Positions 1-53,576 of a stretch of DNA of 64,000 bases are shown here, piece by piece. Both the position numbers and the translations under genes were made by a program. The stretch comes from a virus (taxonomy: Duplodnaviria; Heunggongvirae; Uroviricota; Caudoviricetes). The notes beneath the pieces were generated by a model, which saw only the letters and a list, made by a program, of their open reading frames with translations, had not been told where the DNA came from and ran no database searches. The DNA lies in the IMG/VR virus record IMGVR_UViG_2718218304_000001, positions 32,001 through 96,000 of that record; one strand, given 5' to 3'. Each line of letters opens with the position of its first letter. Within the stretch, counting starts at the first letter, position 1.

Positions 1-123
1 TCCCATGATGGTTTCCTTATTAAGTTGCTTCAGTGAAATCATTTTCACAAATCAGATAAGGCAGAAAACAAATTGTTATCGGGTATAAGAAAATGGCGCG
101 GTTTACGCGCCATTTAAAGAGGA

Positions 124-519
124 TTAAGCGAATACGCTTTCAGGGATTAAGGTGTCGGCAGGAATGCCAGAGGTAATGCGCAGACCGTACTGGCCAATCC
201 AGGTGGTGCTGGTGTTCAGGCTGGAGGCGAATACGGTGTTAACCATATTCATCATGGTTTCAAACACCTCTTCATCAACCTGGCGGAAGTAGCTCTCGAT
301 TTTCAGCAGCAGCGGGTCAGTTGCATCGAGAATGGACTGGTATTGAGTCGCGTACTCGCCGTCGGAGTCATCACCTTTACGCACGATCGTACTGGCCTGG
401 ACTTCGGCACCAGTTTCGGTGTTGTACGTAACAACGGTGATTTTTGCCACATTCTTACCTTCGGCGGTTTCAGAGGCATAGTAAACATCAACTGTCAGTT
501 TTTCGCGTTTAACGGTCAT
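124..519 (-). CDS. hypothetical acidic protein (start refined to internal Met)
   Basis: ORF track 124..585; the upstream part overlaps a promoter-like palindrome, and GGAGAG sits 7 nt before the ATG at 519 (protein starts MTVKREKL). No recognisable domain. Confidence 0.4.
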   Translation of the reverse strand: MTVKREKLTVDVYYASETAEGKNVAKITVVTYNTETGAEVQASTIVRKGDDSDGEYATQYQSILDATDPLLLKIESYFRQVDEEVFETMMNMVNTVFASSLNTSTTWIGQYGLRITSGIPADTLIPESVFA

Positions 520-580
520 TTCACTCTCCGTAGTGTTTTGGTTATTTTTATATTCTATGATAGTAAGTATGTACTTACAA

Positions 581-611
581 TACAAAAAAGCCCCGTAAGG
601 ATGGCGGGGCT
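581..611 (-). terminator. rho-independent terminator (hairpin GCCCCGTAAGGATGGCGGGGC + U-run on minus strand)
   Basis: GC-rich inverted repeat followed by T-run on the minus strand, just downstream of the 646..957 gene. Confidence 0.5.
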
Positions 612-645
612 GTCGTACTGTCGACTAATTACCACTTGCACATTA

Positions 646-957
646 TCAGGCTATTGCCATCACTGATGCTCTCTGAATTTCTTGCTGGGCCACGCGGTTA
701 ACTTCCATCAAAGCCAGTTCGAGCTGATGTTCCGGCCACATTCTTTGAAACGCCATCCAGCCTTTTCCACGCTGGCGACGAACATTCATTACATAACGAG
801 TAAAGGTGTTTTTATCGAAAGACACCGCTGTTTCACGGAACAGACGAATAGAAGTTCCATTGGCAACGATGTCTAGCAAAGTTAATTGAGCAACCAGTGC
901 AGGCTTCTCTTTTCTCTTCTGGTCTTTGTCCAGACCAAGAACCAATGATTTTTTCAT
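646..957 (-). CDS. hypothetical protein
   Basis: ORF track 646..987; start refined to the ATG at 957, which is preceded by GGAG. Motif-1 palindrome lies directly upstream. Confidence 0.35.
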   Translation of the reverse strand: MKKSLVLGLDKDQKRKEKPALVAQLTLLDIVANGTSIRLFRETAVSFDKNTFTRYVMNVRRQRGKGWMAFQRMWPEHQLELALMEVNRVAQQEIQRASVMAIA

Positions 958-1110
958 CACAACTCCGTAAACAACTTGTTTTCTCAATGGCGTAAATAAT
1001 ACCAGTAAGAAAACGGCTACAAAGCATAATGATCAGGTGCATGATCGATATGCAGGTTCCTCCCTGCGGCTATAGAGAAATTAAGCCAGCAATGCTGGCT
1101 TTGGTTGGGA

Positions 1111-1440
1111 TTACGCGAATACTTCAAGAAACTCCTGAACGTCCCAATGCTGGACAAGGTGAAGATAGACCTTAGAAATAACATCATTCTCGCTATCGCA
1201 TGTGAAGTAGTACTTCTGGCTGCGGTTGTATGTGTCCACACAAAATTCGCTCATATCCATAAAGTCAGCATCTTCACCCATGTCGCAAATCATCAAAGCA
1301 GGTGCATCATCACGAGTCATCAGCTCCAGCACCCATCTTGAATTAATCAGAGTGGAAGACCAACCTTCCAGCTCATAGAACTGGTCAAACTCTTTTTGAG
1401 TTAATTTCTTGATTTGGTTGATGTCGATATGTGCAAACAT
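1111..1440 (-). CDS. hypothetical acidic protein
   Basis: ORF track 1111..1461; start refined to the ATG at 1440 with AAGGAT upstream; motif-1 at 1451..1470. Acidic composition, no recognised domain. Confidence 0.35.
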   Translation of the reverse strand: MFAHIDINQIKKLTQKEFDQFYELEGWSSTLINSRWVLELMTRDDAPALMICDMGEDADFMDMSEFCVDTYNRSQKYYFTCDSENDVISKVYLHLVQHWDVQEFLEVFA

Positions 1441-1799
1441 AAAGCAATCCTTAAACAACATGTTTTCTTGATGGTGTTATTATCGCAATAACGCACAGGT
1501 GAAAAAGGATTTTATTCCGGTGAATGTGGTTTTGGCAGTGAGTTTTCAGGTTCAGTACCGAGTACACTTTTTACATTATTCTGATTTAGTGGCCGAAGGT
1601 GGCTGGTGGGCAGAATAATCCTCTCCCCGAAAACCTACTGAAATCGATTGTGACCCGTTGGCTGTCTGGCACAATTACGCTGTAACTGGGCATTCAGAGG
1701 GAATCCAGCGGTAAGTAAGTTCGCCTGCACGTGAGCGCCTCTCTTCTTCCCGCACATTACAGGTGGATAGCCGCAACTCTCCCTCTCGCTATACCGGTA

Positions 1800-1940
1800 C
1801 TCCACCGTTCCTGAACCGGCATCGAGCCTTCTCCCGAAATCCACACAGGCAACTCGACCGTTTCCCTGAAAACCTCCAGCCGTTCCCCGAAGGCAACCCA
1901 GCCGTTTCTGTAGCGGGATGCAACTTTTCCCTGTATGGAC
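1800..1940. repeat. array of ~6 imperfect direct repeats at ~22-bp spacing (core CCGTT(T)CCC(Y)GAAA)
   Basis: Read directly: ccgttcctgaacc, ccttctcccgaaatcc, ccgtttccctgaaaacc, ccgttccccgaaggcaacc, ccgtttctgtagcggg at ~22-bp intervals; a related unit near 1626. Confidence 0.45.
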
Positions 1941-1989
1941 CGAAGGCTGACCGTAGGGGTGTTACGGGGGATAAAATCAGGAGTTGAAT

Positions 1990-2020
1990 AAATACGAAAA
2001 AGGAGGCGACACCCCTCCTT
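1990..2020 (-). terminator. rho-independent terminator on minus strand (AGGAGG-loop-CCTCCT + U-run)
   Basis: Inverted repeat aggaggcgacacccctcct; on the minus strand it is followed by TTTTTCGTATTT. Confidence 0.5.
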
Positions 2021-2039
2021 CCCTCCCCACTTATACATA

Positions 2040-2860
2040 CCTGGCTTCTTCGCTATACATGTTGTGTTTTCTTCGTGTTTTATCTGTCTCAACCTCTCTA
2101 TAGGCGTTAATGCTCACCCCTTCCAGAACGTTCTATACGGCGACTATTTCTGTTGGTGAATTGGGCGTGTTGTTCTCTCTGTCGGTGTAAATGGTTTCGT
2201 TCGTTTTGCGGTGGTTCTTCTGTGGGGTGTTCTCGTCGTTTTGGTGATTGTTCTTCTCCGTCTATGGAGTAATGGCAGGTGGGCGATTCCTTTCGTTATT
2301 GTGTTTGAGTTGTTTGTCTGGAGTGTGTGAAAGGCTTTTGTAGTTATTCGTGTATTGGGTAATGGCGTTTCCCGTGATTGTTATGTTTCGTGTCTTTTGG
2401 GATTGAGAGAAACCTTGCGGTTACAGGCTTCGTTGGGGTTTCAGCGGTTCAGGTGTTTCTTCGCTGTTTGGGTAATGGCGTGTCGTGGGTATCGCGCGTA
2501 TGAATGTTTTCGGATTGCCTGTGAAAGTTAGGTTGGTTGTCCGGTAGCCTGGGAAGAAGAGGTGGGTCTTTTCGGTAGCCTGCCATAAAGAGGTTGGTTG
2601 TTTTGGGGAATGGCATATGTGTTATTTAGTTGTTTTGTTATGCCTGAAAATAAGTTGTTTATATGGTTGTGTAACGCAACGGGAACGATTTTGAGCGTGT
2701 GTTTTTGTTGGTAGTGTGTTGGATCGTCTGTGGTGAAAATTGGACGCTGTGGCGCTGTCTGCTGCGTAGAATTACGGGTATAAGCAGTGATGTGTGAAAA
2801 CGTCAATTTTTTAGACCAAATCGGGTGAAAGCGTTGACGTTTCGTTGATCTGTTATTCAG
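2040..2860 (-). other. ORF-free region with strong strand skew (plus strand G+T rich, minus strand C+A rich) and repeated GGGTAATGGCG-like units
   Basis: No credible ORF; the track ORF 2528..2884 is low-complexity. Bounded by a motif-1 copy at 2861..2890 and the minus-strand terminator at ~2000. Confidence 0.4.
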
Positions 2861-3015
2861 TTGTTTTCTTATTGGTATAAACAACGTTAACCTATTGATA
2901 TTTAAAGGTGTGATTGCAGGTATGGAAGGAGAGTAGTGGCGATCAACGGATTCTTATAGAAAAGAATCAAATTGTGACCGCCATTATCAACTGATTGATT
3001 TGTTTACTTGTGTAG

Positions 3016-3414
3016 TCAGTTCTCGAAATGAATAGGGTCAACGTAATGCCGCTCACCGCTTTTACCATTACACAGCACTGTAACTTTCGCCTTTTCACTC
3101 CAGGCTGAGTATAGAAAGTTCCCATCAGGTTGAACATGGTAACGAGAGAAGTAAACATCGCCGACTGAGGCGTCGAACATGTTCCTATCTTTTTCACTTT
3201 GGGCAAGCGAGATGGATATCACCGAATTCCCATTTGGGGAAACGATTTTAAATTTATTCCCTATATCCATAACAATATTGTAACCAGGTAATTGCTTGTG
3301 TGTTTCCGGATCTATTTTCATGCATCGTGGGTACACGATAGTGTTAGGCTCTTCAACTGGCGTGGCATTAGCAGAAAGCACAAAAAATATTAGTGCCAAT
3401 GGTGCATATTTCAT
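3016..3414 (-). CDS. secreted hypothetical protein (N-terminal signal peptide)
   Basis: ORF track; N-terminus MKYAPLALIFFVLSANA is signal-peptide-like. Confidence 0.4.
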   Translation of the reverse strand: MKYAPLALIFFVLSANATPVEEPNTIVYPRCMKIDPETHKQLPGYNIVMDIGNKFKIVSPNGNSVISISLAQSEKDRNMFDASVGDVYFSRYHVQPDGNFLYSAWSEKAKVTVLCNGKSGERHYVDPIHFEN

Positions 3415-3708
3415 TTATCCCTCACAATTTCCAATTTTCCAGACCATCGTCTATTTCAGCGTCAGGGTGGAATTGTACCGCATCAAATCCTACATCGAGC
3501 ACCTTTCGAATGTTCTTGATGGTTTGCTATGTGACACCGTAATCACGCAGCTTTTCTTCCCTCCCCTGACTCCCCCATACTCCGTTTCTGTACCCAATTG
3601 AGTCCGAGATCGTATGGTGCTCGAAACAGATATTTGGTAGACACTCAGAGTCATGCTGTGTAACGAGGGTAGGGCTACTAACTGTCGTCTTATACAATTT
3701 GGTGAGTT

Positions 3709-3957
3709 TCAGCATTTTACCACCCCGTTCGGAAACAACTCATTCGCCGTAGTTGATATAACCTCCCAATTAACGCCGACATCAGCGTTATGGCATTGTC
3801 TGATTTTTTGCATCACCTGTACGCATTGTTCATCAGTGAGATCTGTCCTTACTTCAGCAATATCTTCTTTGTGCCACATAACCATGAGTAAGGGTTCGTC
3901 TTCTGGATAGTTTTTCAGTTTCTCGATGATTTCTTTTGCTGTTCCAAACATCTTCAT
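3709..3957 (-). CDS. hypothetical acidic protein
   Basis: ORF track; GGAG before the ATG; motif-1 copy immediately upstream (3961..3980). Confidence 0.4.
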   Translation of the reverse strand: MKMFGTAKEIIEKLKNYPEDEPLLMVMWHKEDIAEVRTDLTDEQCVQVMQKIRQCHNADVGVNWEVISTTANELFPNGVVKC

Positions 3958-4059
3958 CTCCTAAACAATTTGTTTTCTTATATGACTTATTATCTCAATC
4001 AACAAAAGGTAGAAAACAAATTGTTTTAGAGTTTGTTAAAGTCAGAAGGGGTTGTGTCT

Positions 4060-4090
4060 ATATGAAAATGCCCAGCGTATTGCTGGGCAT
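4060..4090 (-). terminator. metG terminator hairpin (GCCCAGCGTATTGCTGGGC)
   Basis: Inverted repeat followed by a U-rich tract on the minus strand, directly after the metG stop. Confidence 0.55.
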
Positions 4091-4110
4091 TGTGAAGAAT
4101 GGTTGCTTAA

Positions 4111-6144
4111 TTACTTAACCTGGTGGCCAGGTTTAGCACCGACATCCGGGCTTAACAGGAAGATATCTTTCCCGCCAGGGCCAGCAGCCATCACCATGCC
4201 TTCGGAGATACCGAAGCGCATTTTACGCGGAGCCAGGTTAGCCACCATAATGGTGTGACGACCAATCAGTGCCTGTGGGTCTGGATAAGCAGAACGAATG
4301 CCGGAGAAGACATTGCGTTTTTCACCGCCGAGATCCAGCGTCAGGCGTAGCAGTTTGTCAGAACCTTCTACAAACTCTGCGTTTTCAATCAGCGCCACGC
4401 GCAGGTCAACTTTGGCGAAGTCGTCAAAGGTGATAGTTTCCTGAATCGGGTCGTCAGCCAGTGGGCCAGTTACCGGTGCGGCTGTGGCTTTCACTTCTTC
4501 TTTGGATGCTTCCACCAGTGCTTCAACCTGCTTCATATCGATGCGGTTATACAGTGCCTTGAACGGATTCACTTTATGGCCCAGCAGCGGTTGCTGGATA
4601 CCATCCCAGGTCAGTTCTGTATTCAGGAATGCTTCTGCACGTTCAGTCAGTTTCGGCAGTACCGGCTTCAAGTACGTCATCAGCACGCGGAACAGGTTAA
4701 TGCCCATAGAGCAAATCGCCTGCAGATCGGCATCGCGTCCTTCCTGCTTCGCCACCACCCACGGAGCCTGTTCATCGACATAGCGGTTAGCCAGGTCAGC
4801 CAATGCCATGATTTCACGGATAGCTTTACCAAATTCGCGGCTTTCCCATGCTTCACCAATCACTTCAGCAGCATCAGTGAAGGTTTTATACAGTTGCGGG
4901 TCAGCCAGTTCGCCTGCCAGCACACCGTCAAAACGCTTATTGATAAAGCCCGCGTTACGGGACGCCAGGTTAACCACTTTGTTAACGATATCGGCATTCA
5001 CACGCTGAACGAAATCCTCCAGGTTGAGATCGATATCATCAATACGCGAAGAGAGTTTCGCAGTGTAGTAGTAACGCAGGCTGTCAGCGTCAAAATGATT
5101 CAGCCAGGTGCTGGCTTTAATAAAGGTGCCGCGAGACTTGGACATCTTCGCGCCGTTCACCGTCACATAGCCATGAACAAACAGGTTGGTCGGCTTGCGG
5201 AAGTTGCTGCCTTCCAGCATGGCAGGCCAGAACAGGCTGTGGAAGTAAACAATATCTTTACCGATGAAGTGGTACAGCTCGGCGGTGGAGTCTTTCTTCC
5301 AGTATTCATCGAAGCTGGTGGTATCGCCGCGCTTGTCGCACAGATTCTTGAAGGAACCCATGTAGCCAATCGGCGCGTCCAGCCAGACGTAGAAATATTT
5401 GCCCGGCGCGTTCGGAATTTCAAAACCGAAGTAAGGCGCATCGCGGGATATATCCCACTGTTGCAGGCCGGATTCAAACCATTCCTGCATTTTGTTCGCC
5501 ACCTGCTCCTGCAACGCGCCGCTGCGGGTCCATGCCTGCAACATTTCGCTGAAAGAAGGTAGATCAAAGAAGAAGTGTTCGGAATCACGCATTACCGGGG
5601 TAGCGCCAGAAACCACCGATTTCGGCTCGATCAATTCAGTCGGGCTATATGTTGCGCCGCAGACTTCACAGTTATCGCCGTATTGATCTGGCGCTTTACA
5701 TTTCGGGCAGGTGCCTTTTACAAAACGATCCGGCAGGAACATGCCTTTTTCCGGGTCGTACAACTGAGAGATAGTGCGGTTTTTAATAAAACCGTTCTCT
5801 TTCAGGCGAGTATAGATAAGCTCAGACAACTGACGGTTCTCTTCGCTGTGCGTCGAGTGATAGTTGTCATAGCTGATGTTAAAGCCTGCGAAATCAGTCT
5901 GGTGTTCCTGACTCATTTCGCCAATCATCTGCTCCGGTGTGATACCAAGCTGCTGTGCTTTCAGCATGATCGGCGTACCGTGGGCATCGTCGGCACAGAT
6001 GAAATTAACCTCGTGGCCGCGCATTCGCTGGTAACGAACCCAGACATCAGCCTGGATGTGCTCCAGCATATGGCCGAGGTGGATTGAGCCGTTAGCGTAC
6101 GGCAGCGCGCACGTCACCAGAATTTTCTTCGCGACTTGGGTCAT
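4111..6144 (-). CDS. metG: methionyl-tRNA synthetase
   Basis: Translation starting [29 protein letters not shown] matches E. coli MetG over its full 677 aa as I recall it; the ORF-track start at 6273 is an upstream in-frame extension. Confidence 0.95.
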
Positions 6145-6301
6145 AGTAGGCATTACTTCTTTGTAGTGAAAAGGGGCTTGATAGTAACAAAATGGCCTTA
6201 TGTCTGCCATGTGATAACAGCATTTCTCATAAATGATTAAATGTCGTAGCTGGAGTACACTACAAGGCGACAATTGCGCAAATTAAAATAAAGGAGACGG
6301 G

Positions 6302-7402
6302 ATGAGCGAGTCCAAATCGCCGGATGCCCTGAGAGCAATGGTAGCCGGTACGCTGGCTAATTTTCAGCACCCAACCCTGAAACACAACCTGACTACGCTT
6401 AAAGCGTTACACCATGTTGCGTTGATGGATGACACACTGCATGTCGAACTAATCATGCCTTTCGTGTGGAATAAGCCTTTTGAAGACCTGAAAGAGCAAT
6501 GTAGTGGTGATCTGCTCCGTATCACTGGCGCAAAGGCTATTGACTGGAAGCTGTCGTACAACATTGCCACGCTTAAGCGCGTCAAAAACCAACCAGGCAT
6601 TAATGGCGTTAAGAACATTATCGCCGTCAGCTCAGGCAAGGGCGGCGTGGGTAAATCCTCCACGGCGGTAAACCTGGCACTGGCGTTGGCTGCTGAAGGT
6701 GCGAAAGTTGGTATTTTGGATGCCGATATCTATGGTCCATCAATTCCAACCATGCTGGGCGCGGAAAACCAACGTCCAACCTCACCGGACGGTACTCACA
6801 TGGCACCTATCATGTCTCATGGCCTGGCAACCAACTCTATTGGTTATCTGGTCACCGACGACAATGCAATGGTGTGGCGTGGACCGATGGCCAGCAAGGC
6901 GCTGATGCAGATGTTGCAGGAAACTCTATGGCCTGATCTGGACTATCTCGTTCTCGATATGCCGCCGGGCACTGGTGATATTCAGTTGACGCTGGCGCAG
7001 AACATTCCTGTAACTGGTGCGGTTGTGGTAACTACGCCGCAAGACATCGCGCTGATCGATGCGAAGAAAGGCATTGTGATGTTCGAAAAAGTCGAAGTGC
7101 CGGTACTGGGTATCGTCGAAAACATGAGTGTGCATATTTGCAGTAACTGCGGTCATCACGAGCCAATTTTTGGCACCGGTGGCGCACAGAAACTGGCCGA
7201 GAAATACAACACGCAGTTGTTAGGCCAAATGCCACTTCATATCTCTCTTCGTGAAGATCTGGATAACGGAACACCAACCGTTATTAGTCGTCCAGATAGC
7301 GAATTTACGGCTATTTATCGTGACCTCGCAGATCGCGTTGCCGCCCAAATGTATTGGCAAGGTGAAGTAATACCTGGCGAAATCGCATTCCGCGCAGTGT
7401 GA
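6302..7402 (+). CDS. apbC: Fe-S cluster carrier ATPase ApbC/Mrp
   Basis: Contains GKGGVGKS P-loop and CxxC; near-identical to E. coli Mrp/ApbC from memory. Confidence 0.95.
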   Translation: MSESKSPDALRAMVAGTLANFQHPTLKHNLTTLKALHHVALMDDTLHVELIMPFVWNKPFEDLKEQCSGDLLRITGAKAIDWKLSYNIATLKRVKNQPGINGVKNIIAVSSGKGGVGKSSTAVNLALALAAEGAKVGILDADIYGPSIPTMLGAENQRPTSPDGTHMAPIMSHGLATNSIGYLVTDDNAMVWRGPMASKALMQMLQETLWPDLDYLVLDMPPGTGDIQLTLAQNIPVTGAVVVTTPQDIALIDAKKGIVMFEKVEVPVLGIVENMSVHICSNCGHHEPIFGTGGAQKLAEKYNTQLLGQMPLHISLREDLDNGTPTVISRPDSEFTAIYRDLADRVAAQMYWQGEVIPGEIAFRAV

Positions 7403-7404
7403 TA

Positions 7405-7428
7405 AAAGGCGGTGCATTGCACCGCCTA
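7405..7428. terminator. bidirectional terminator hairpin between convergent apbC and the UmuD-like gene
   Basis: Inverted repeat ggcggtgcattgcaccgcc flanked by A/T runs. Confidence 0.5.
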
Positions 7429-7438
7429 ATCAGTTCTC

Positions 7439-7828
7439 CTACATCACGGGACAATCATCAAACTCGCCACTTCTTGCGTCGTTGATAATGTGAGTGATCA
7501 CACCAAACACGGCATTGCTGCCCGTGCATCCATCGTCATCCTTTGGCAATGCTTCCTTCTTACCGGTTCTTAAATCCTCCAGATGCTGACGTGGGTACTT
7601 CCGGTATCTTTTTACGCGATATTCCCCATCCAGAGCGCATACAAGCAGAGAACCATCAACCGGGGTAAGTGAGGAATCGACCACCAGCAATGCACCCTGT
7701 AATATTCCCTCACGATGATGACTATCAGCTGCCCTCATGAAGTAGGTCGCTGAAGGATGTCTAATTATCTGCTGATCAAGAGAAATACGGCTCTCAGCAT
7801 AATCCGCCGCAGGAGAAGGGAAGCCCAT
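7439..7828 (-). CDS. UmuD'-like S24 peptidase domain protein (lacks UmuD N-terminal arm; no umuC partner)
   Basis: MGFPSPAADYAE...HPSATYF...LLVVDS...DGEYRVKR aligns with UmuD from its Cys24-Gly25 cleavage site onward; Ser (ADSH) and Lys (RVKR) of the catalytic dyad are retained. Confidence 0.6.
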   Translation of the reverse strand: MGFPSPAADYAESRISLDQQIIRHPSATYFMRAADSHHREGILQGALLVVDSSLTPVDGSLLVCALDGEYRVKRYRKYPRQHLEDLRTGKKEALPKDDDGCTGSNAVFGVITHIINDARSGEFDDCPVM

Positions 7829-7926
7829 AGCGTTTTCACCTCAGAGTACTGTTTATCCATACAGTATACATTAAAGATGCTTGAAGTGTGCAATAGCGCG
7901 ATGCTTTGCGCTCGTCTGGTGGCGCG

Positions 7927-8178
7927 TTATTTTTTGGCTATATCTTCTTTCTGATATACCGGATCGTTTCCTTTTGGCAGCAGGAGGCTTAACTGCCGGT
8001 AGTGCCGTAGCCGTTCCATGAAATAGGTGCGCAGGTTCTCAGGTTGCTCACGGGCTACCTGTTCCGCTATGACGGGTATGTTCAATCGCTCTTTGTAGGC
8101 AACCCCCCTGGCAGCCAGGTCAACGTTAACTTTATTCCTTTCTTCCTGGCTTTTGGCTGCTATGTTCCAGTTGCTCAT
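7927..8178 (-). CDS. hypothetical protein
   Basis: ORF track only; no recognisable motifs. Confidence 0.2.
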
Positions 8179-16736: not shown

Positions 16737-17033
16737 GTGTTTTTCCTAATGCTTAAACAAGTTGTTTTCTTATTGGCTTTATTGTGATGTGGCATAAAAG
16801 GGGAGCAAGCTAAACGTAAAGGTGCAAACTCTCTATTTCGGTCAACGAAACACAAGGGCCATTTGGCCCTTGTCATTAACACGTTGCTTTACGGACTAGC
16901 GGATAAGCGAAGTAGATCGCCAGACCAATGAGGACGCCATCAGAAATGACAGACATCATCTTTCCCGTAAAATCCACCAACACCGCTATCACCAGAAGAG
17001 CAATGACGGTCACAAGCCGGAATCTCTCAAGCA

Positions 17034-17459: not shown

Positions 17460-17552
17460 GTGTTTTCCTTTTGCTATTTGTCAAAACAAATTGTTTTCTG
17501 GTTACATAAATTGCTTACGCAAAGACGGTCAATGCATATGCACTAACAACCG

Positions 17553-27677: not shown

Positions 27678-27783
27678 GTGTTTTTCCTTTTTCTTTTTTA
27701 GTGCGTTTAAACAAGTTGTTATCTTATGTGTTTAAACAAGGCTTACAAATCAAAGAGAAGGTGGGGATATCCCCCACCATATG

Positions 27784-31495: not shown

Positions 31496-33401
31496 AGCTG
31501 CGCCCCTCTTTAACTTCCAGCGTAATAGTTTCCCGGAACCACGACTTCATCTCTTTATGGGAGATAATCAGCACAGTACCTCGCTCGCGAGCTTTGGACT
31601 CCAGAATACCCATGAGGCGTTCAAGACCGGCTGTATCGAGTGCATCGTCAATTTCGTCGCCGATAAACAAATCGATGTTTTTACTCGCCCGGTTACTAAC
31701 CAGATCCTGCAATGCCAAAGAACACGCAATGCGAACCTTCCGCTTCTCACCACCAGAGAGGGTTTGGAACGACTTACTTGAACCTTTCTTCTGCACACTA
31801 ATGTTGAATTTGTCGCGATACTCACCTTTTTTAGTGACATCCATCGTCGACCACTCAGCAGTAATATTCCCGTCAGACAACGTATTGAGATACTCGGCAG
31901 TGCGTGTATTCAGGAAAGGCGTAACAGACGTCAAAATATGAGAACGCACCCCGGCAGGAGAGTAGACCTGACGAGCTTTTTCCAATAGCAACGTTTGTTC
32001 CTGAATAGCCTTCAACTCATCTTTTAAGGACTTGAAGGTAGACTTACTGGATACCAGGTTATCTTCGTGTCTGGCGATAAGAGCAATAAACGGATTAATC
32101 TCTTTTGATATACGATCGACCTCAGTACGAGCACGAGTCACAAGAGACTCAATAGCAACAACCTCCTTCTCACGATGACGCAAAGATGAGAGTTGTTTCG
32201 TAAGCTCTTCAATCCGGGCAATGATAGCCGTTACATCAGGTGTCGTTTTAACAAGGGCAGACTCAATGCTTAACGCTTTCTCAAGATTCGTTTTGTGTTT
32301 AGCCATTGCCTCTGCAAGTGTCTTCGCCTGACCAATTTCCTGACGTGCTTGTTCAATGAAATTCTCCTTCACCGTTGATAGATCTTCTTCGCAGTAGGCT
32401 TTGCCACAAGTAGGGCATGGTGATCCCACTTTAGTACCAACCTCTTCTGCTTTGGTCTTAAAATTACGCGCGCGGTTCATTGCATCAGCCTGACTATTTT
32501 CTGTAGCTTTGATGCTTGCCCGAATATCAGTTATCGCACCACGAACTTTGAGCAACTTGGCGTCATGTTCTTCTTTTGAGGCTAACTTTTTGCGCTCACT
32601 TTCGATTGCCTTCTCGGTATCACGTATCTGTTCGGGAAGAGTGCGGATCTCAAGTTCAACTTCCGTTAACTCAACTTCGGCACTGGCCAGCCCAGCCAGG
32701 GCATCGTCATAACGTTTAGAACGCTCTTGCTCCCATGATTCAGAGGAGGCTTTCGCTGACTCAATTTCTGACTGTGTTGCCTCAATGGTCGAGATTGTCG
32801 ACTCCAATTTGGTTTTAACCACATCCATACGTGCGGCAGCTGCATTAGCTCGCTCACGAGCAATAGCGTAGGCGCGTGTCAGTCTGTCAACGCCAGCGGC
32901 TTCTTCTACGATGGTTTTGAGGTTTTTGTCGGACATTCCAGGTAAATCTGGCATAGCTTCTTGGCTCGCATAGATGGAAGCCATGAAAACCTCTTTAGAT
33001 GCACCGATCAGACGCTCGACGAACTCCTGCGTCAGCGCATCTTTGCCTTTCGTCATATCGCCATCTTCACCACGAACGATAAGACGATTTTTGAACTCTT
33101 TGTGTTTACGGTGACGAATGATTGCGTATCTCTTGCCTTCATCCTCGATGGTTACTGCAACACGACAGTTCTTTTCATGGTCGGTAGACAACACATCGTC
33201 ACCCTTCACACCATGAGCTGTTTCGCCATAAAGACACCACATCAGGCTATTCATTAGAGTTGACTTTCCAGAGCCATTACTTGATGCGGAACTATCATCA
33301 CTATTAACACCCTGAATGAGCACTAAACCACGCTGATCTAACTCGACCTCCGCGCTGGCGATAGCCATAAAATTCTCAACCTGGAGCTTTAAAAACTTCA
33401 T
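31485..33401 (-). CDS. SbcC/Rad50-like ATPase (recombination nuclease subunit)
   Basis: N-terminal Walker A GVNSDDSSASSNGSGKST, long coiled-coil middle, C-terminal LSGGE signature. Confidence 0.8.
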   Translation of the reverse strand: MKFLKLQVENFMAIASAEVELDQRGLVLIQGVNSDDSSASSNGSGKSTLMNSLMWCLYGETAHGVKGDDVLSTDHEKNCRVAVTIEDEGKRYAIIRHRKHKEFKNRLIVRGEDGDMTKGKDALTQEFVERLIGASKEVFMASIYASQEAMPDLPGMSDKNLKTIVEEAAGVDRLTRAYAIARERANAAAARMDVVKTKLESTISTIEATQSEIESAKASSESWEQERSKRYDDALAGLASAEVELTEVELEIRTLPEQIRDTEKAIESERKKLASKEEHDAKLLKVRGAITDIRASIKATENSQADAMNRARNFKTKAEEVGTKVGSPCPTCGKAYCEEDLSTVKENFIEQARQEIGQAKTLAEAMAKHKTNLEKALSIESALVKTTPDVTAIIARIEELTKQLSSLRHREKEVVAIESLVTRARTEVDRISKEINPFIALIARHEDNLVSSKSTFKSLKDELKAIQEQTLLLEKARQVYSPAGVRSHILTSVTPFLNTRTAEYLNTLSDGNITAEWSTMDVTKKGEYRDKFNISVQKKGSSKSFQTLSGGEKRKVRIACSLALQDLVSNRASKNIDLFIGDEIDDALDTAGLERLMGILESKARERGTVLIISHKEMKSWFRETITLEVKEGRSYVV

Positions 33402-35814: not shown

Positions 35815-35925
35815 GTATGCTGTCAGCGGTAATTGATAGTCTGTCAGCGGTTCACCGTATGCTGCCAACTGTTTTTGGTATTCTGTCAGCGGCAAATCAA
35901 GTATGCTGTCAGCGGTTGAATGACA
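35815..35925 (+). repeat. upstream iteron cluster (~5 copies, consensus TATGCTGTCAGCGGT)
   Basis: Direct repeats read in sequence immediately 5' of the rep start. Confidence 0.7.
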
Positions 35926-35936
35926 AAGGTGTCCAC

Positions 35937-37031
35937 ATGTCCACAAAAAATAAAAAAGGTAAAAATAACAAAGAAGTAGAAGATAATCTCGACAACTTTG
36001 AAGAAGGTTCCCTTGAATTGTACACAGGGGAACTTGTCCCTAATAGCAACAATACAGTCCAACCAATTGCGTTGATGCGGCTGGGATTGTTCGTGCCCAC
36101 GCTCAAGGGGACAAAATACAGCAAGCGTAACAAGCCAAATGAGATCGATGCTTCAAAGGAGCTTGTCCAGCTCGAAGTAGCCCGTTCTGAAGGCTATTCC
36201 GATATCAAGATAACCGGTCCTCGTCTCGACATGGATCATGATTTCAAAACGTGGGTGGGCGTTGTGCGTTCGCTGGCAGAATACGGCGAACCTAATGGTC
36301 GTGTCGAGTTAAGCATCACGAAATTTGCGAAGTTTTGTGGCTATCCATCGTCACAGATCCGCAAAACACTCCGCGACCGGCTTACAAACAGTCTTTTGAA
36401 GATCATGCGTACAACTCTGTCTTTCCAGAGAACGTATGAAGAAAAGAACGTCGACGGCTCTAACAAGATCTCGCTTCTGATGGTGCACCTCATCAATAGC
36501 GTGGACTACAACGAGCAGAAAGATACGGTGGTGTTCTATGCAGAACCGAAGCTGGCCGAACTATATCGCTTTGACCATAAGGTTCTTTTGCAGTTAAAGG
36601 TTATCAATAAGCTACCACGCAAAGAAACAGCACAGGCTCTGTACACCTTCATCGAAAGTCTTCCAACCAAGCCTGCGCCGGTATCGCTTGCTCGATTGCG
36701 TGCGCGACTCAATTTGAGTAGCAGGAATGTCAGCTCGCAGAATCAGACTATACGTAACGGCTTAAAAGCTCTCCAAGATTTGGGCTATCTCGAATACAGC
36801 GAGATTAAGCGTGGGCGGTCGATCTATATCCAGATTCACAGCCGCAATCCAAAACTTAAAGTCGCACCGCCAAAACCTGAAGACATCGAACCCAAAAAAC
36901 CAGATGAGAAAGCCGGGGAAATTGATGCTAAACAGAACATTATCAACAAGATAACTGAACTTTCGCAGAATTTGACGCCTGAAAATATCAAGATGATTGA
37001 GATCCTTTCCAATAGTCTCAAACTGCTTTGA
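35937..37031 (+). CDS. plasmid-type replication initiator (Rep), iteron-binding
   Basis: Basic N-terminus; flanked on both sides by iteron arrays (P1 RepA-like organisation); start refined to the ATG at 35937 after AAAGGTG. Confidence 0.6.
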   Translation: MSTKNKKGKNNKEVEDNLDNFEEGSLELYTGELVPNSNNTVQPIALMRLGLFVPTLKGTKYSKRNKPNEIDASKELVQLEVARSEGYSDIKITGPRLDMDHDFKTWVGVVRSLAEYGEPNGRVELSITKFAKFCGYPSSQIRKTLRDRLTNSLLKIMRTTLSFQRTYEEKNVDGSNKISLLMVHLINSVDYNEQKDTVVFYAEPKLAELYRFDHKVLLQLKVINKLPRKETAQALYTFIESLPTKPAPVSLARLRARLNLSSRNVSSQNQTIRNGLKALQDLGYLEYSEIKRGRSIYIQIHSRNPKLKVAPPKPEDIEPKKPDEKAGEIDAKQNIINKITELSQNLTPENIKMIEILSNSLKLL

Positions 37032-37032
37032 T

Positions 37033-37560
37033 ATGCTGTCAGCGGTGAAATGTATGCTATCAGCGGCTATTTTTCTGAAAAGTATGCTGTGAACGGTTAA
37101 AGATATGCTACCAGCGGTATAGTGAGATGAACGTATGCTGTGGGCGGTAAATCATCTATCACCACTCAATGCTCTTTTATACCTCCCCAGTGGTTACTAA
37201 CCTCGAAGAGTGCATTCCATATAGGTTTGCGCTCACTAACATTCTATTCCCATTGCGCTGATTGCTTGTAGTGAAAGGCATTTATTGCCTGCTGCTCCCT
37301 GATAGAACGTATGCTGTCAGCGGTGTTTTATTGAGGAATTTTTGTTTGGATATGCTATCAGCGGTAATTAATGGTATATGTCAGACCTTCGTATGCTGCC
37401 AGCGGTAATTTTGTTCTGGTTATACCCATACCGGTACACATTATTCATGCAATGTCTTAAGTATGCTGTCAGCGGTAAAAAATCGAGTAAAGTATGCTGT
37501 GAGCGGTGAGATAGACTCTCGATATGCTATCAGCGGTAGTTGATTGTGTATGCTGTTAGC
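37033..37560 (+). repeat. downstream iteron array (~12 copies of (G/A)TATGCTGTCAGCGGT with variants)
   Basis: Copies near 37033, 37053, 37085, 37105, 37133, 37310, 37352, 37393, 37462, 37491, 37521, 37546. Confidence 0.75.
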
Positions 37561-37610
37561 GGTGACGACTATGAAATATGACTGCGGCACGTTCCGCAGT
37601 CAGTTTGCAT

Positions 37611-39130: not shown

Positions 39131-39209
39131 GTTTTCTTATCCTTTTAAACAAATTGTTTTCTTAATAAGATAATTGCGATAAAAAAGGCGTCCTGTGGAC
39201 GCCTTGTGT

Positions 39210-53478: not shown

Positions 53479-53576
53479 GGCTAATCCTTTGTTATGAAAA
53501 CAAATTATTTACTAGTGTGTTTAATGTAGCACTGCGCGAACAGGGAACTAAGCCATTCGCGCAGGGAGAAGAGGGG

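Follow-up and report, generated by a model that had tools for sequence, protein, structure and literature searches.

The 64,000-nucleotide (nt) stretch analyzed here, positions 32,001 to 96,000 of the IMG/VR virus record IMGVR_UViG_2718218304_000001 (hereafter the window, numbered from its first letter), is part of an SSU5/pHCM2-type phage-plasmid of Escherichia coli and carries near its left end an array of short, phased direct repeats (array 1) within a conserved block free of genes. The region around array 1 has counterparts in 218 complete E. coli genomes, invariably on plasmids of about 105 to 115 kilobases (kb), with pGD31-F25 as the closest match (99.1%); farther off, the matches comprise the phages SSU5, Cyrano, and PhiR41_1, phage-plasmids of Klebsiella, and 714 plasmid records spanning Klebsiella, Escherichia, Enterobacter, Salmonella, Citrobacter, Cronobacter, and Shigella. 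We assign the window to this type because of these relatives and because the annotation of pGD31-F25 combines phage structural, replication, and nucleotide-metabolism genes with a RepA replicon. Such elements are frequent in clinical Enterobacteriaceae, being carried by about 4% of the complete E. coli genomes here, and bear both resistance and housekeeping cargo; the SSU5 family takes in Salmonella Typhi pHCM2 and parts of Yersinia pestis pMT1. Literature searches recovered nothing on the origins, packaging ends, or noncoding regions of SSU5/pHCM2 elements and no cis-acting sites beyond the RepA replicon. The following features lie at the locus.

1462 to 2994, no strand assigned: gene-free conserved block of 1.53 kb, between two reverse-strand genes, holding array 1
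1805 to 1931, forward strand: array 1, six units of CC(G/T)TT(T/C)CC(C) starting at 1805, 1827, 1858, 1880, 1902, and 1924
1805 to 1813, forward strand: array 1 unit 1, CCGTTCCTG
1827 to 1835, forward strand: array 1 unit 2, CCTTCTCCC (weak)
1858 to 1866, forward strand: array 1 unit 3, CCGTTTCCC
1880 to 1888, forward strand: array 1 unit 4, CCGTTCCCC
1902 to 1910, forward strand: array 1 unit 5, CCGTTTCTG
1924 to 1931, forward strand: array 1 unit 6, CTTTTCCC
1624 to 1636, forward strand: partial unit-like element, TCCCCGAAAACCT
4111 to 6144, reverse strand: metG, cargo right of the block
Outside the window, about 1.7 kb before its start (pGD31-F25 72,385 to 72,500; 4724 to 4835 of locus L001): array 2

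The units of array 1 are spaced 22/31/22/22/22 nt apart, near two and three helical turns, and read (C/G)(A/G)GGGAAA(C/A)GG on the reverse strand. The first-pass annotation of this DNA had described six units with a phasing of about 22 base pairs (bp); they do lie where it placed them, and both shuffle and autocorrelation tests are positive. Standard repeat finders are nearly blind to the array because only about 9 to 12 nt of each 22-nt unit is kept: Tandem Repeats Finder made no report for array 1, and a general repeat search gave just weak two-copy families there. Local shuffle and lag statistics nevertheless favor the array. The best 9-mer family in the interval from 1795 to 1945 has five copies, a number equalled in 1 of 500 dinucleotide shuffles, and the five copies of an 11-mer family were equalled in 0 of 500; motif-free autocorrelation of the same interval gives z = 4.1 at lag 22 and z = 3.9 at lag 44, and that of a 72%-identical homologue gives z = 4.3 at lag 22. 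The lag-44 signal arises because the units alternate between CCG and CCT, which in most lineages yields three rounds of a 44-nt super-period. Of the 11 occurrences of the motif pattern in the window, four are in array 1. A further related unit that had been placed near 1626 matches the tail of unit 3 but is without the CCGTTT core, and we list it as a partial element; it is conserved in the lineages that share this segment.

Comparative evidence argues more strongly than these local statistics that the array is real. In all of the lineages fetched (Escherichia, Shigella, Salmonella, Enterobacter, and Klebsiella, together with a Kluyvera contig), 1.5 to 2 kb without genes is found at the position of the block, which is homologous over its full length at 66 to 72% identity, compared with 67 to 80% for the flanking genes, i.e., the two evolve about equally slowly. 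A further 66 viral contigs were added, giving 53 distinct sequences in 15 clusters. The six units keep offsets of 15/37/68/90/112/134 in the lineages fetched while the spacers diverge, and column conservation is 0.88 in the motif versus 0.78 in the spacers, with its maximum at register 0. Whole units have been lost in several lineages (L002, L027, L061, and L039), PhiR41_1 is without exactly one 23-nt unit though its record annotates a coding sequence (CDS) there, and in Klebsiella a 9-nt deletion converts the lone 31-nt gap to 22. An apparent loss of the array in L018 is an IS21 insertion and not a natural variant. The block is present in 244 complete E. coli genomes, compared with 238 for the terminase gene, and again all copies are on plasmids. 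Related elements across the SSU5 family, to which the annotation had pointed as a check, thus carry the array with its positions and spacing conserved. The statement that no gene overlaps it stands in substance, although a hypothetical CDS is annotated over it in some phage records: no frame is open across lineages, lengths differ by non-multiples of 3, and one lineage lacks a unit of 23 nt, so that we reject a protein-coding reading.

Directly right of the block lie metG and apbC (the latter as annotated in pGD31-F25), which are cargo; the metG product is presumably nearly the same as MetG of E. coli K-12. At the same spot, other lineages have different cargo (DUF262, a GIY-YIG nuclease, an autotransporter, or IS1), which marks an insertion hot spot right of the block. 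The array is part of the phage-plasmid backbone and not of the metG cargo. Pattern scans covered a wider range of genomes. In the viral collection, only SSU5-type contigs and three unrelated hits, about the chance expectation, were recovered, and the genome collection added Kluyvera, Buttiauxella, and Yersinia pestis, its remaining hits being unrelated perfect tandem repeats that the fixed 22-nt spacing of the scan favors. In L096, an unrelated high-GC viral contig, six copies of CCGTTTCCC (direct, plus one inverted pair) occur at 1540 to 1670, in the gap just after a gene judged from sequence alone to encode an AAA_25/RepA-like helicase; this may be an independent use of the same motif or a coincidence.

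The same motif recurs on the same strand in array 2, which lies 1.5 to 4 kb left of array 1 in nearly every locus with enough flank and has three or four units at spacings of 22, 33/34, and 48 nt; no other cluster of at least three units was found elsewhere in the loci examined. Array 2 shows high conservation, and its terminal sequence, CCCTGCGGCAGCTGGTGG, includes a Chi site; with another on the reverse strand 43 to 89 nt to the left, array 2 is bracketed by converging Chi sites. Its last unit is the loop of the terminator of the last small gene (GGGCC-AGAAAC-GGCCC), and further repeats (AACGCG/TAGCGCG-type) and palindromes (TAATCACGTATGTGATTA) lie within the 500 nt on its left. In Yersinia pestis, array 2 is kept, and the 8-kb locus has no array 1. 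What the annotation had described as an array is one module within a conserved, untranslated block of 1.5 kb and has a twin outside the window. The arrays are real, phased, and under selection, and they are neither coding nor a structured RNA gene (see below). Array 1 is very probably a cis-acting array of binding sites, apparently for a protein of the element itself.

The two arrays bracket six small reverse-strand genes, each with its own promoter and a palindromic operator, GAAAACAAnTTGTTT. This palindrome has 11 sites in the window versus 1.2 expected and, on inspection by eye, stands between a GATAAT-like -10 element and the Shine-Dalgarno sequence at 967 to 983, 1453 to 1467, and 3961 to 3977; its probable role is that of an operator for a global repressor of early genes. 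Of the six bracketed proteins, four are very acidic, with isoelectric points (pI) of 4.1 to 4.7, and two are basic (window 124 to 1440, reverse strand, and L001 4849 to 7961). The bracketed proteins have no Pfam match and fall into PHROG families of unknown function, and the acidity of the four suggests, by analogy, early anti-defense functions of a DNA-mimic or anti-restriction-like kind. All of the genes neighboring array 1 are on the reverse strand, and both arrays lie at zones of converging transcription. At about 1461 to 1468, the window is some 380 bp short relative to most lineages, the difference including a small gene of 216 bp that in those lineages separates the block from the 330-bp gene.

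1111 to 1440, reverse strand: first small early gene of the bracketed cluster, 109 amino acids (aa), pI 4.2, phrog_7645, family of unknown function
646 to 957, reverse strand: gene of the core 103-aa basic protein, pI 10.3, in the bracketed cluster
1452 to 1491, reverse strand: promoter/operator module of the first small gene left of the block (GATAAT, then GAAAACATGTTGTTT, then Shine-Dalgarno)
64 to 80, 967 to 983, 1453 to 1467, 2646 to 2660, 3961 to 3977, and 4012 to 4028: GAAAACAAnTTGTTT sites
16753 to 16769, 17482 to 17498, 27709 to 27723, 39145 to 39161, and 53496 to 53512: GAAAACAAnTTGTTT sites, continued

Our leading candidate for the binder of these arrays is a protein of the FljA family encoded by the same elements, a reading to which we give a probability of roughly 35%.

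pGD31-F25 69,618 to 70,142 (L016 19618 to 20142), about 4 kb left of the window start: gene of the FljA-family protein (WP_000208379.1; "repressor of phase-1 flagellin")

The gene lies in a forward-strand operon ending just before array 2 and was found at 1.5 to 2.8 kb left of array 2 in all 55 of the loci with enough flank, those of Klebsiella plasmids and Yersinia pestis among them; these two hosts are nonmotile. Its product matches PF03614 over the full length (E = 1.5e-84), with a subthreshold match to Hfq. The structural model (predicted local distance difference test [pLDDT] score, 76) consists of a helix and five strands, twice, and its top PDB matches are all Hfq (template modeling [TM] scores of 0.7 to 0.85, normalized to the Hfq chain, at a root mean square deviation of about 1.1 to 1.4 Å), so that a tandem Hfq-like fold is predicted. 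Published work describes FljA-type proteins as blocking the translation of fliC mRNA and as abolishing the motility of E. coli (PMC2652032; bioRxiv 10.1101/2025.10.27.684867). The reverse strand of array 2 shares with the 5' untranslated region (UTR) of E. coli fliC the 12-mer UGAGCCGACGGG, as the second-best locus in the 110-kb plasmid. The Salmonella-type fliC leader, checked in metagenome contigs, starts with the hairpin ACGG-UGAGAAA-CCGU, and a weight matrix built from 42 array units picks exactly this site, the CGGTGAGAAACCGTGG hairpin in the Salmonella-type fliC 5' UTR, on the sense strand only (6.1 bits; UTR-wide P = 0.022). Across 22 arrays, 20 reverse-strand hairpins have a 4-bp stem and GAAA at the end of the loop, versus 1.9 in shuffles, with GCCG-NNGGGAAA-CGGC as a recurrent form. 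These resemblances to fliC leaders are short and partly lineage specific; we regard them as suggestive, not conclusive.

In the explanation that we favor, the arrays are two paralogous sets of short, oriented recognition sites in the SSU5/pHCM2-type backbone, each unit presenting a core of 9 to 12 nt (forward strand, GCCGTTTCCC; reverse strand, GGGAAACGGC), and the 22-nt spacing would allow several copies of one sequence-specific protein to load side by side. Because the arrays share orientation, lie 1.5 to 4 kb apart, and flank small, individually promoted, mostly acidic early genes, we read them as boundary or control sites for the bracketed cluster. The FljA-like protein, if it is the binder, would recognize the reverse-strand sequence, the strand transcribed throughout the region, with the sites often displayed in hairpins whose short GC stem encloses a purine loop with GAAA at its end (as in the recurrent hairpin form above). 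Multisite binding would then decide what becomes of transcripts that enter or leave the early-gene cluster or else buffer the free protein. A bolder extension, which we consider rather improbable, is that FljA itself, known only as the repressor in flagellar phase variation, is a domesticated member of a phage-plasmid family of tandem-Hfq-like regulators whose native targets would be the multicopy GGGAAAC(G/C) twin-array sites around the early anti-defense cluster of SSU5/pHCM2/pMT1-type elements. Were this true, the arrays would be the first multisite RNA (or DNA) platform described for an FljA-type protein, and the likeness of some units to host fliC leaders would allow host flagellin to be shut off by this protein as well. 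The FljA link, if true, would likewise explain the presence of a "flagellin repressor" in nonflagellated hosts and give the family a defined recognition motif. The 1.5-kb untranslated block, the twin arrays, and the core Hfq-like FljA-family protein together offer handles on how SSU5/pHCM2-type elements switch, replicate, or package.

Several observations weigh against the FljA-family protein as the binder. Array 1 has no similarity to the E. coli fliC leader (scores of 13 to 14, i.e., average), in which the weight matrix also found no hit (P = 0.8); the hit in the Salmonella leader reaches about 6 bits compared with 11 to 17 bits for real units, and the 12-mer identity is limited to one unit plus spacer in the E. 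coli lineage. The 4-bp stem is formed by just 0 to 2 units per array, the hairpin enrichment is present on the forward strand too and is based on related sequences, and the P values are optimistic in that the motif was compared with several other known sites before fliC. Placement is likewise unlike that of a leader or a ribosome-binding-site operator: both arrays lie downstream of reverse-strand terminator hairpins, some 340 nt from the next start codon, array 1 being about 340 nt upstream of one and array 2 beyond the terminator of the last gene. The strict 22-nt spacing is at least as natural for proteins on one face of duplex DNA, and the co-occurrence of the FljA-family gene with the arrays is nondiscriminating because every core gene co-occurs with them. 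Finally, that the fliC leader hairpin is the exact target of FljA is something we presume.

The remainder of the block is rich in other features, and these bear on the alternative explanations considered below.

1602 to 1609, forward strand: Chi site GCTGGTGG, some 200 nt to the left of array 1 and present here in 13 of the 20 loci checked
1997 to 2023, reverse strand: terminator-like hairpin with a T-run, immediately upstream of array 1 in the reverse-strand sense
2100 to 2900, forward strand: GT-skewed segment, with GC skew of +0.4 to +0.5 and AT skew down to -0.64
2254 to 2484, forward strand: repeat family B, TTCTCCGTGTATGGAGTAATGGC-like and GTAATGGC-containing, with copies at 2254, 2344, and 2457
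2605, forward strand: GGGGAATGGCA, listed with repeat family B
2542 to 2603, forward strand: repeat family C, two 31-nt units of CGGTAGCCTG-N8-AGAGGTGGGT
2646 to 2660, forward strand: copy of the early-operator palindrome GAAAACAAnTTGTTT inside the block
2798 to 2992, no strand assigned: CGTTGA(C/T) site cluster surrounding a short AT-rich stretch, with sites in both orientations
35815 to 37567, both sides of and within repA: RepA iteron GTATGCTGTCAGCGGTAAnT, 20 nt, at least 15 copies

The segment from 2100 to 2900 is the best-conserved part of the block (80 to 96% column conservation), exceeding the array itself, and this conservation is above what base composition alone would require; no coding signal and no conserved RNA structure were found in it, and an RNA made from its reverse strand would be rich in C and A and poor in G, a composition that Rho prefers. 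Family B has three to seven copies in other lineages, and a second cluster of family C lies outside the window, just upstream of the promoter of the last small gene. CGTTGA(C/T) sites are conserved at 2830 and 2840 (forward) and at 2940 and 2985 (reverse), and the cluster includes the inverted repeat AAACGTCAA/TTGACGTTT. The terminator-like hairpin keeps its position in other lineages with a weaker T-run. Chi sites are abundant throughout, with 14 in the window versus 1.5 expected and 26 in the 110-kb plasmid versus 2.3 expected (11-fold), and five of them lie within 3.5 kb between and around the two arrays; a global Chi polarity was rejected, as the strand pattern mostly tracks gene strand. 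Right of the block, two reverse-strand open reading frames (ORFs) at 3016 to 3414 and 3527 to 3715 correspond to one 244-aa CDS in the 99%-identical pGD31-F25, so that this gene appears disrupted in the window. Farther away, in the nucleotide-metabolism module, a phage-type dihydrofolate reductase gene (pGD31-F25 97,754 to 98,230; window about 23.6 to 24.0 kb) is annotated as the trimethoprim resistance gene dfrA51.

A structured noncoding RNA was ruled out by several kinds of analysis. An Rfam search of window positions 1 to 8000 gave no match, and RNAalifold on 23 diverse sequences gave -0.56 kcal/mol for the forward strand and -6.85 kcal/mol for the reverse strand with 0 compensatory pairs, the sole consensus helix being the terminator-like hairpin at 2023 to 1997. 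Single-sequence fold z-scores of -0.79 to +0.67 are no better than those of shuffles. In a sliding consensus fold, every window over array 1 was above z = -3, and one 140-nt window in the block fell below it (2740 to 2879, reverse strand, z = -3.69), at the AAACGTCAA/TTGACGTTT DNA inverted repeat at the right edge of the block. An array of the type III toxin-antitoxin (toxI-like) kind does not fit either: the repeats have diverged too far, no toxin family matches the downstream gene, and the reverse-strand order is terminator, array 1, 340 nt, and promoter, unlike the repeat-terminator-toxin order of toxI.

Repeats of this kind had been read in the first-pass annotation as typical of iteron origins, partition sites, or packaging-protein binding arrays. 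A phased, direct-repeat, cis-acting platform without a gene does fit the conservation, the unit-wise changes in copy number, and the lack of a coding or RNA signal, but none of the three functions is confirmed, and each fails at least one defining feature. Packaging is the best placed of them, although we consider it unlikely: the arrays would be duplex sites for the terminase small subunit or a partner, constituting a pac site or the two borders of a direct terminal repeat in which the small early genes would lie. Repeat arrays flank the terminal repeat of T7 in the same geometry, and the R sites of lambda cosB, which bind the small subunit of the lambda terminase, offer a second parallel, since the CGTTTCC core is the heptamer of all three (R3, R2, and R1, read from the lambda sequence). 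T5-type phages are among the relatives of the terminase large subunit (about 25% identity over 91%), and T5 has highly conserved untranslated repeat regions of 0.2 to 1.2 kb beside small pre-early genes, straddling the border of the terminal repeat. The very acidic character of four of the six bracketed proteins, as in first-entering anti-restriction proteins, the Chi sites near both arrays, and the cargo hot spot on the right flank would also suit such a role. The terminase region itself speaks against it. At 9 to 12 kb from array 1 and 5 to 9 kb from array 2, it encodes a Terminase_6/3 large subunit, two ParB_N proteins, an ABC-type ATPase, and a protein of 210 aa that has a helix-turn-helix at its N terminus and no PDB relative. 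The terminase genes, which are not of the lambda Nu1/GpA type, stand 12 kb from array 1, and the motif is absent near them. The putative small subunit is without a Nu1 signature or any Pfam or PDB match, and the large subunit (Terminase_6N/3 match) belongs to a clade that includes headful packagers. Moreover, the block has no sequence similarity to the T5 repeats and is retained in 52- and 72-kb deletion plasmids, and no deposited phage record begins or ends at it, such records starting near the terminase genes by convention.

Comparably doubtful is a role as sites for another duplex-DNA-binding protein, be it a ParB-N-domain protein, the basic 103-aa or 160-aa protein, or a host factor, which would form a complex or loop that silences or insulates the early genes during plasmid carriage. 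Two same-strand arrays that flank a gene cluster and lie in zones of converging transcription, with spacings of 22 and 31 nt near two and three helical turns, are what such a regulator might use, two ParB_N proteins and the ABC-type ATPase are core genes, and two basic small proteins are encoded between the arrays. The sites are, however, not palindromic, unlike most ParB sites, the ParB-like genes are 5 to 9 kb away in the terminase operon, and the array 2 spacings of 33/34 and 48 nt are off the helical phase. The 103-aa basic protein has no recognizable DNA-binding fold, and we found no support for it as the binder: its homologues are found only within the family, and its model (pLDDT 79; four beta-strands and a C-terminal helix) has no significant PDB match.

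We think it improbable that the arrays are the iterons of a second (lytic) origin resembling phage P4 ori and crr, with two clusters recognized by a phage initiator and both needed in cis. Direct repeats at a 22-nt spacing in two clusters 1.5 to 4 kb apart recall such an arrangement, as do the further oriented repeat families of the block and the CGTTGAY cluster around its short AT-rich stretch, the repeats and palindromes in the region left of array 2, which follows an operon starting with a DEAD/DEAH helicase, and the six CCGTTTCCC copies beside the putative AAA_25/RepA-like helicase gene of L096. No initiator gene, however, stands beside either array; no conserved DnaA or IHF sites lie near the array, where a scan for GATC also found nothing conserved; the flanks (54 to 58% GC) have no long AT-rich unwinding element; and the plasmid-wide GC skew follows gene strand only. 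Only 9 to 12 nt per unit are conserved, compared with 75 to 95% identity over 20 nt in the true RepA iterons. That the array might itself consist of RepA iterons was rejected, these being unrelated in sequence (GTATGCTGTCAGCGGTAAnT) and 35 kb away (window 35.8 to 37.6 kb). A partition centromere (parS/parC) is not supported, no ATPase or ParB-type gene being found beside either array; the ParB_N genes are 5 to 9 kb off in the terminase operon, and a ParA-like pair, the candidate partition genes, lies at 33.2 to 34.3 kb of the record.

Still less probable is an explanation that needs no dedicated factor, in which a decaying tandem duplication leaves weak hairpins that aid termination between converging units. 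Terminator hairpins on the reverse strand precede both arrays, and in array 2 the last unit is itself a terminator loop; unit number varies between lineages, and the folding energy is no better than that of shuffled sequence. Under decay, the motif would be lost sooner than the spacers, and the reverse is observed: this explanation is contradicted by cores that are more conserved than the spacers, the register is held across genera at 66 to 72% identity, and the core recurs in a second array. Finally, a reverse-strand transcript acting as a CsrB-like sponge for host CsrA can almost certainly be dismissed, since, although five of the six array 1 units contain GGA (within CAGGGA, CGGGGA, or CAGGAA) as in the consensus of CsrA sites, the most conserved bases are GAAACGG and not GGA, the CAGAAACGG units are without GGA yet conserved, Rfam gave no CsrB/CsrC/Rsm hit, and no conserved hairpins present the GGA. 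Resemblances of the motif to sites of AlgR/LytTR, OmpR, and BaeR, to LacI-family half-sites, and to KOPS were taken as no more than leads.

Several well-studied systems invite comparison. With the lambda cosB R sites, the arrays share an identical heptamer, CGTTTCC, repeated in a phage genome, a resemblance of 7 nt only; lambda has three sites, one of them inverted, together with an IHF site, beside cosN and the Nu1 gene, whereas here 6 plus 4 direct copies stand 12 kb from Terminase_6/3 genes that have no Nu1 domain. The untranslated repeat regions at the terminal repeat of T5 (Davison, bioRxiv 10.1101/866236) are likewise kilobase-sized blocks with several direct and inverted repeat families, strand-skewed stretches, and adjoining small early genes, and the terminase large subunits of the two are distantly related. 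Conservation in the T5 regions is at least that of the adjoining ORFs, and the block described here, with at least five motif families, is about as conserved as its flanking genes. There is, in contrast, no sequence similarity between them: a BLAST search with the block recovered SSU5-type phages only and no T5 match, and the T5 repeats (TGTGCAAATCCGAC and paired DnaA boxes) are absent here. The elements differ in that SSU5-type elements are temperate plasmid prophages and that, of the two, T5 is the one known to have a terminal repeat.

Plasmid iterons and P4 ori/crr have direct repeats with a period of about 22 nt in two separated clusters, as do the arrays, but here an adjacent initiator gene, an unwinding element, and DnaA boxes are all missing, and much less of each unit is conserved. 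The split centromeres parC1 and parC2 of pB171, which reportedly flank the par genes, resemble the arrays in that two short direct-repeat arrays flank a small gene cluster, and differ in that no ParA-type ATPase or recognizable centromere-binding protein is encoded between the arrays here. As for FljA and the fliC 5' UTR, which serve flagellar phase variation in Salmonella and E. coli, a full-length member of the family is encoded by the element, and the reverse-strand motif GGGAAACGG and the GCCG-NNGGGAAA-CGGC form resemble the fliC leader hairpin; the known system, however, has one site in one mRNA leader near the ribosome-binding site, whereas the phage-plasmids have three to six phased copies per array, in two arrays, far from start codons and downstream of terminators.

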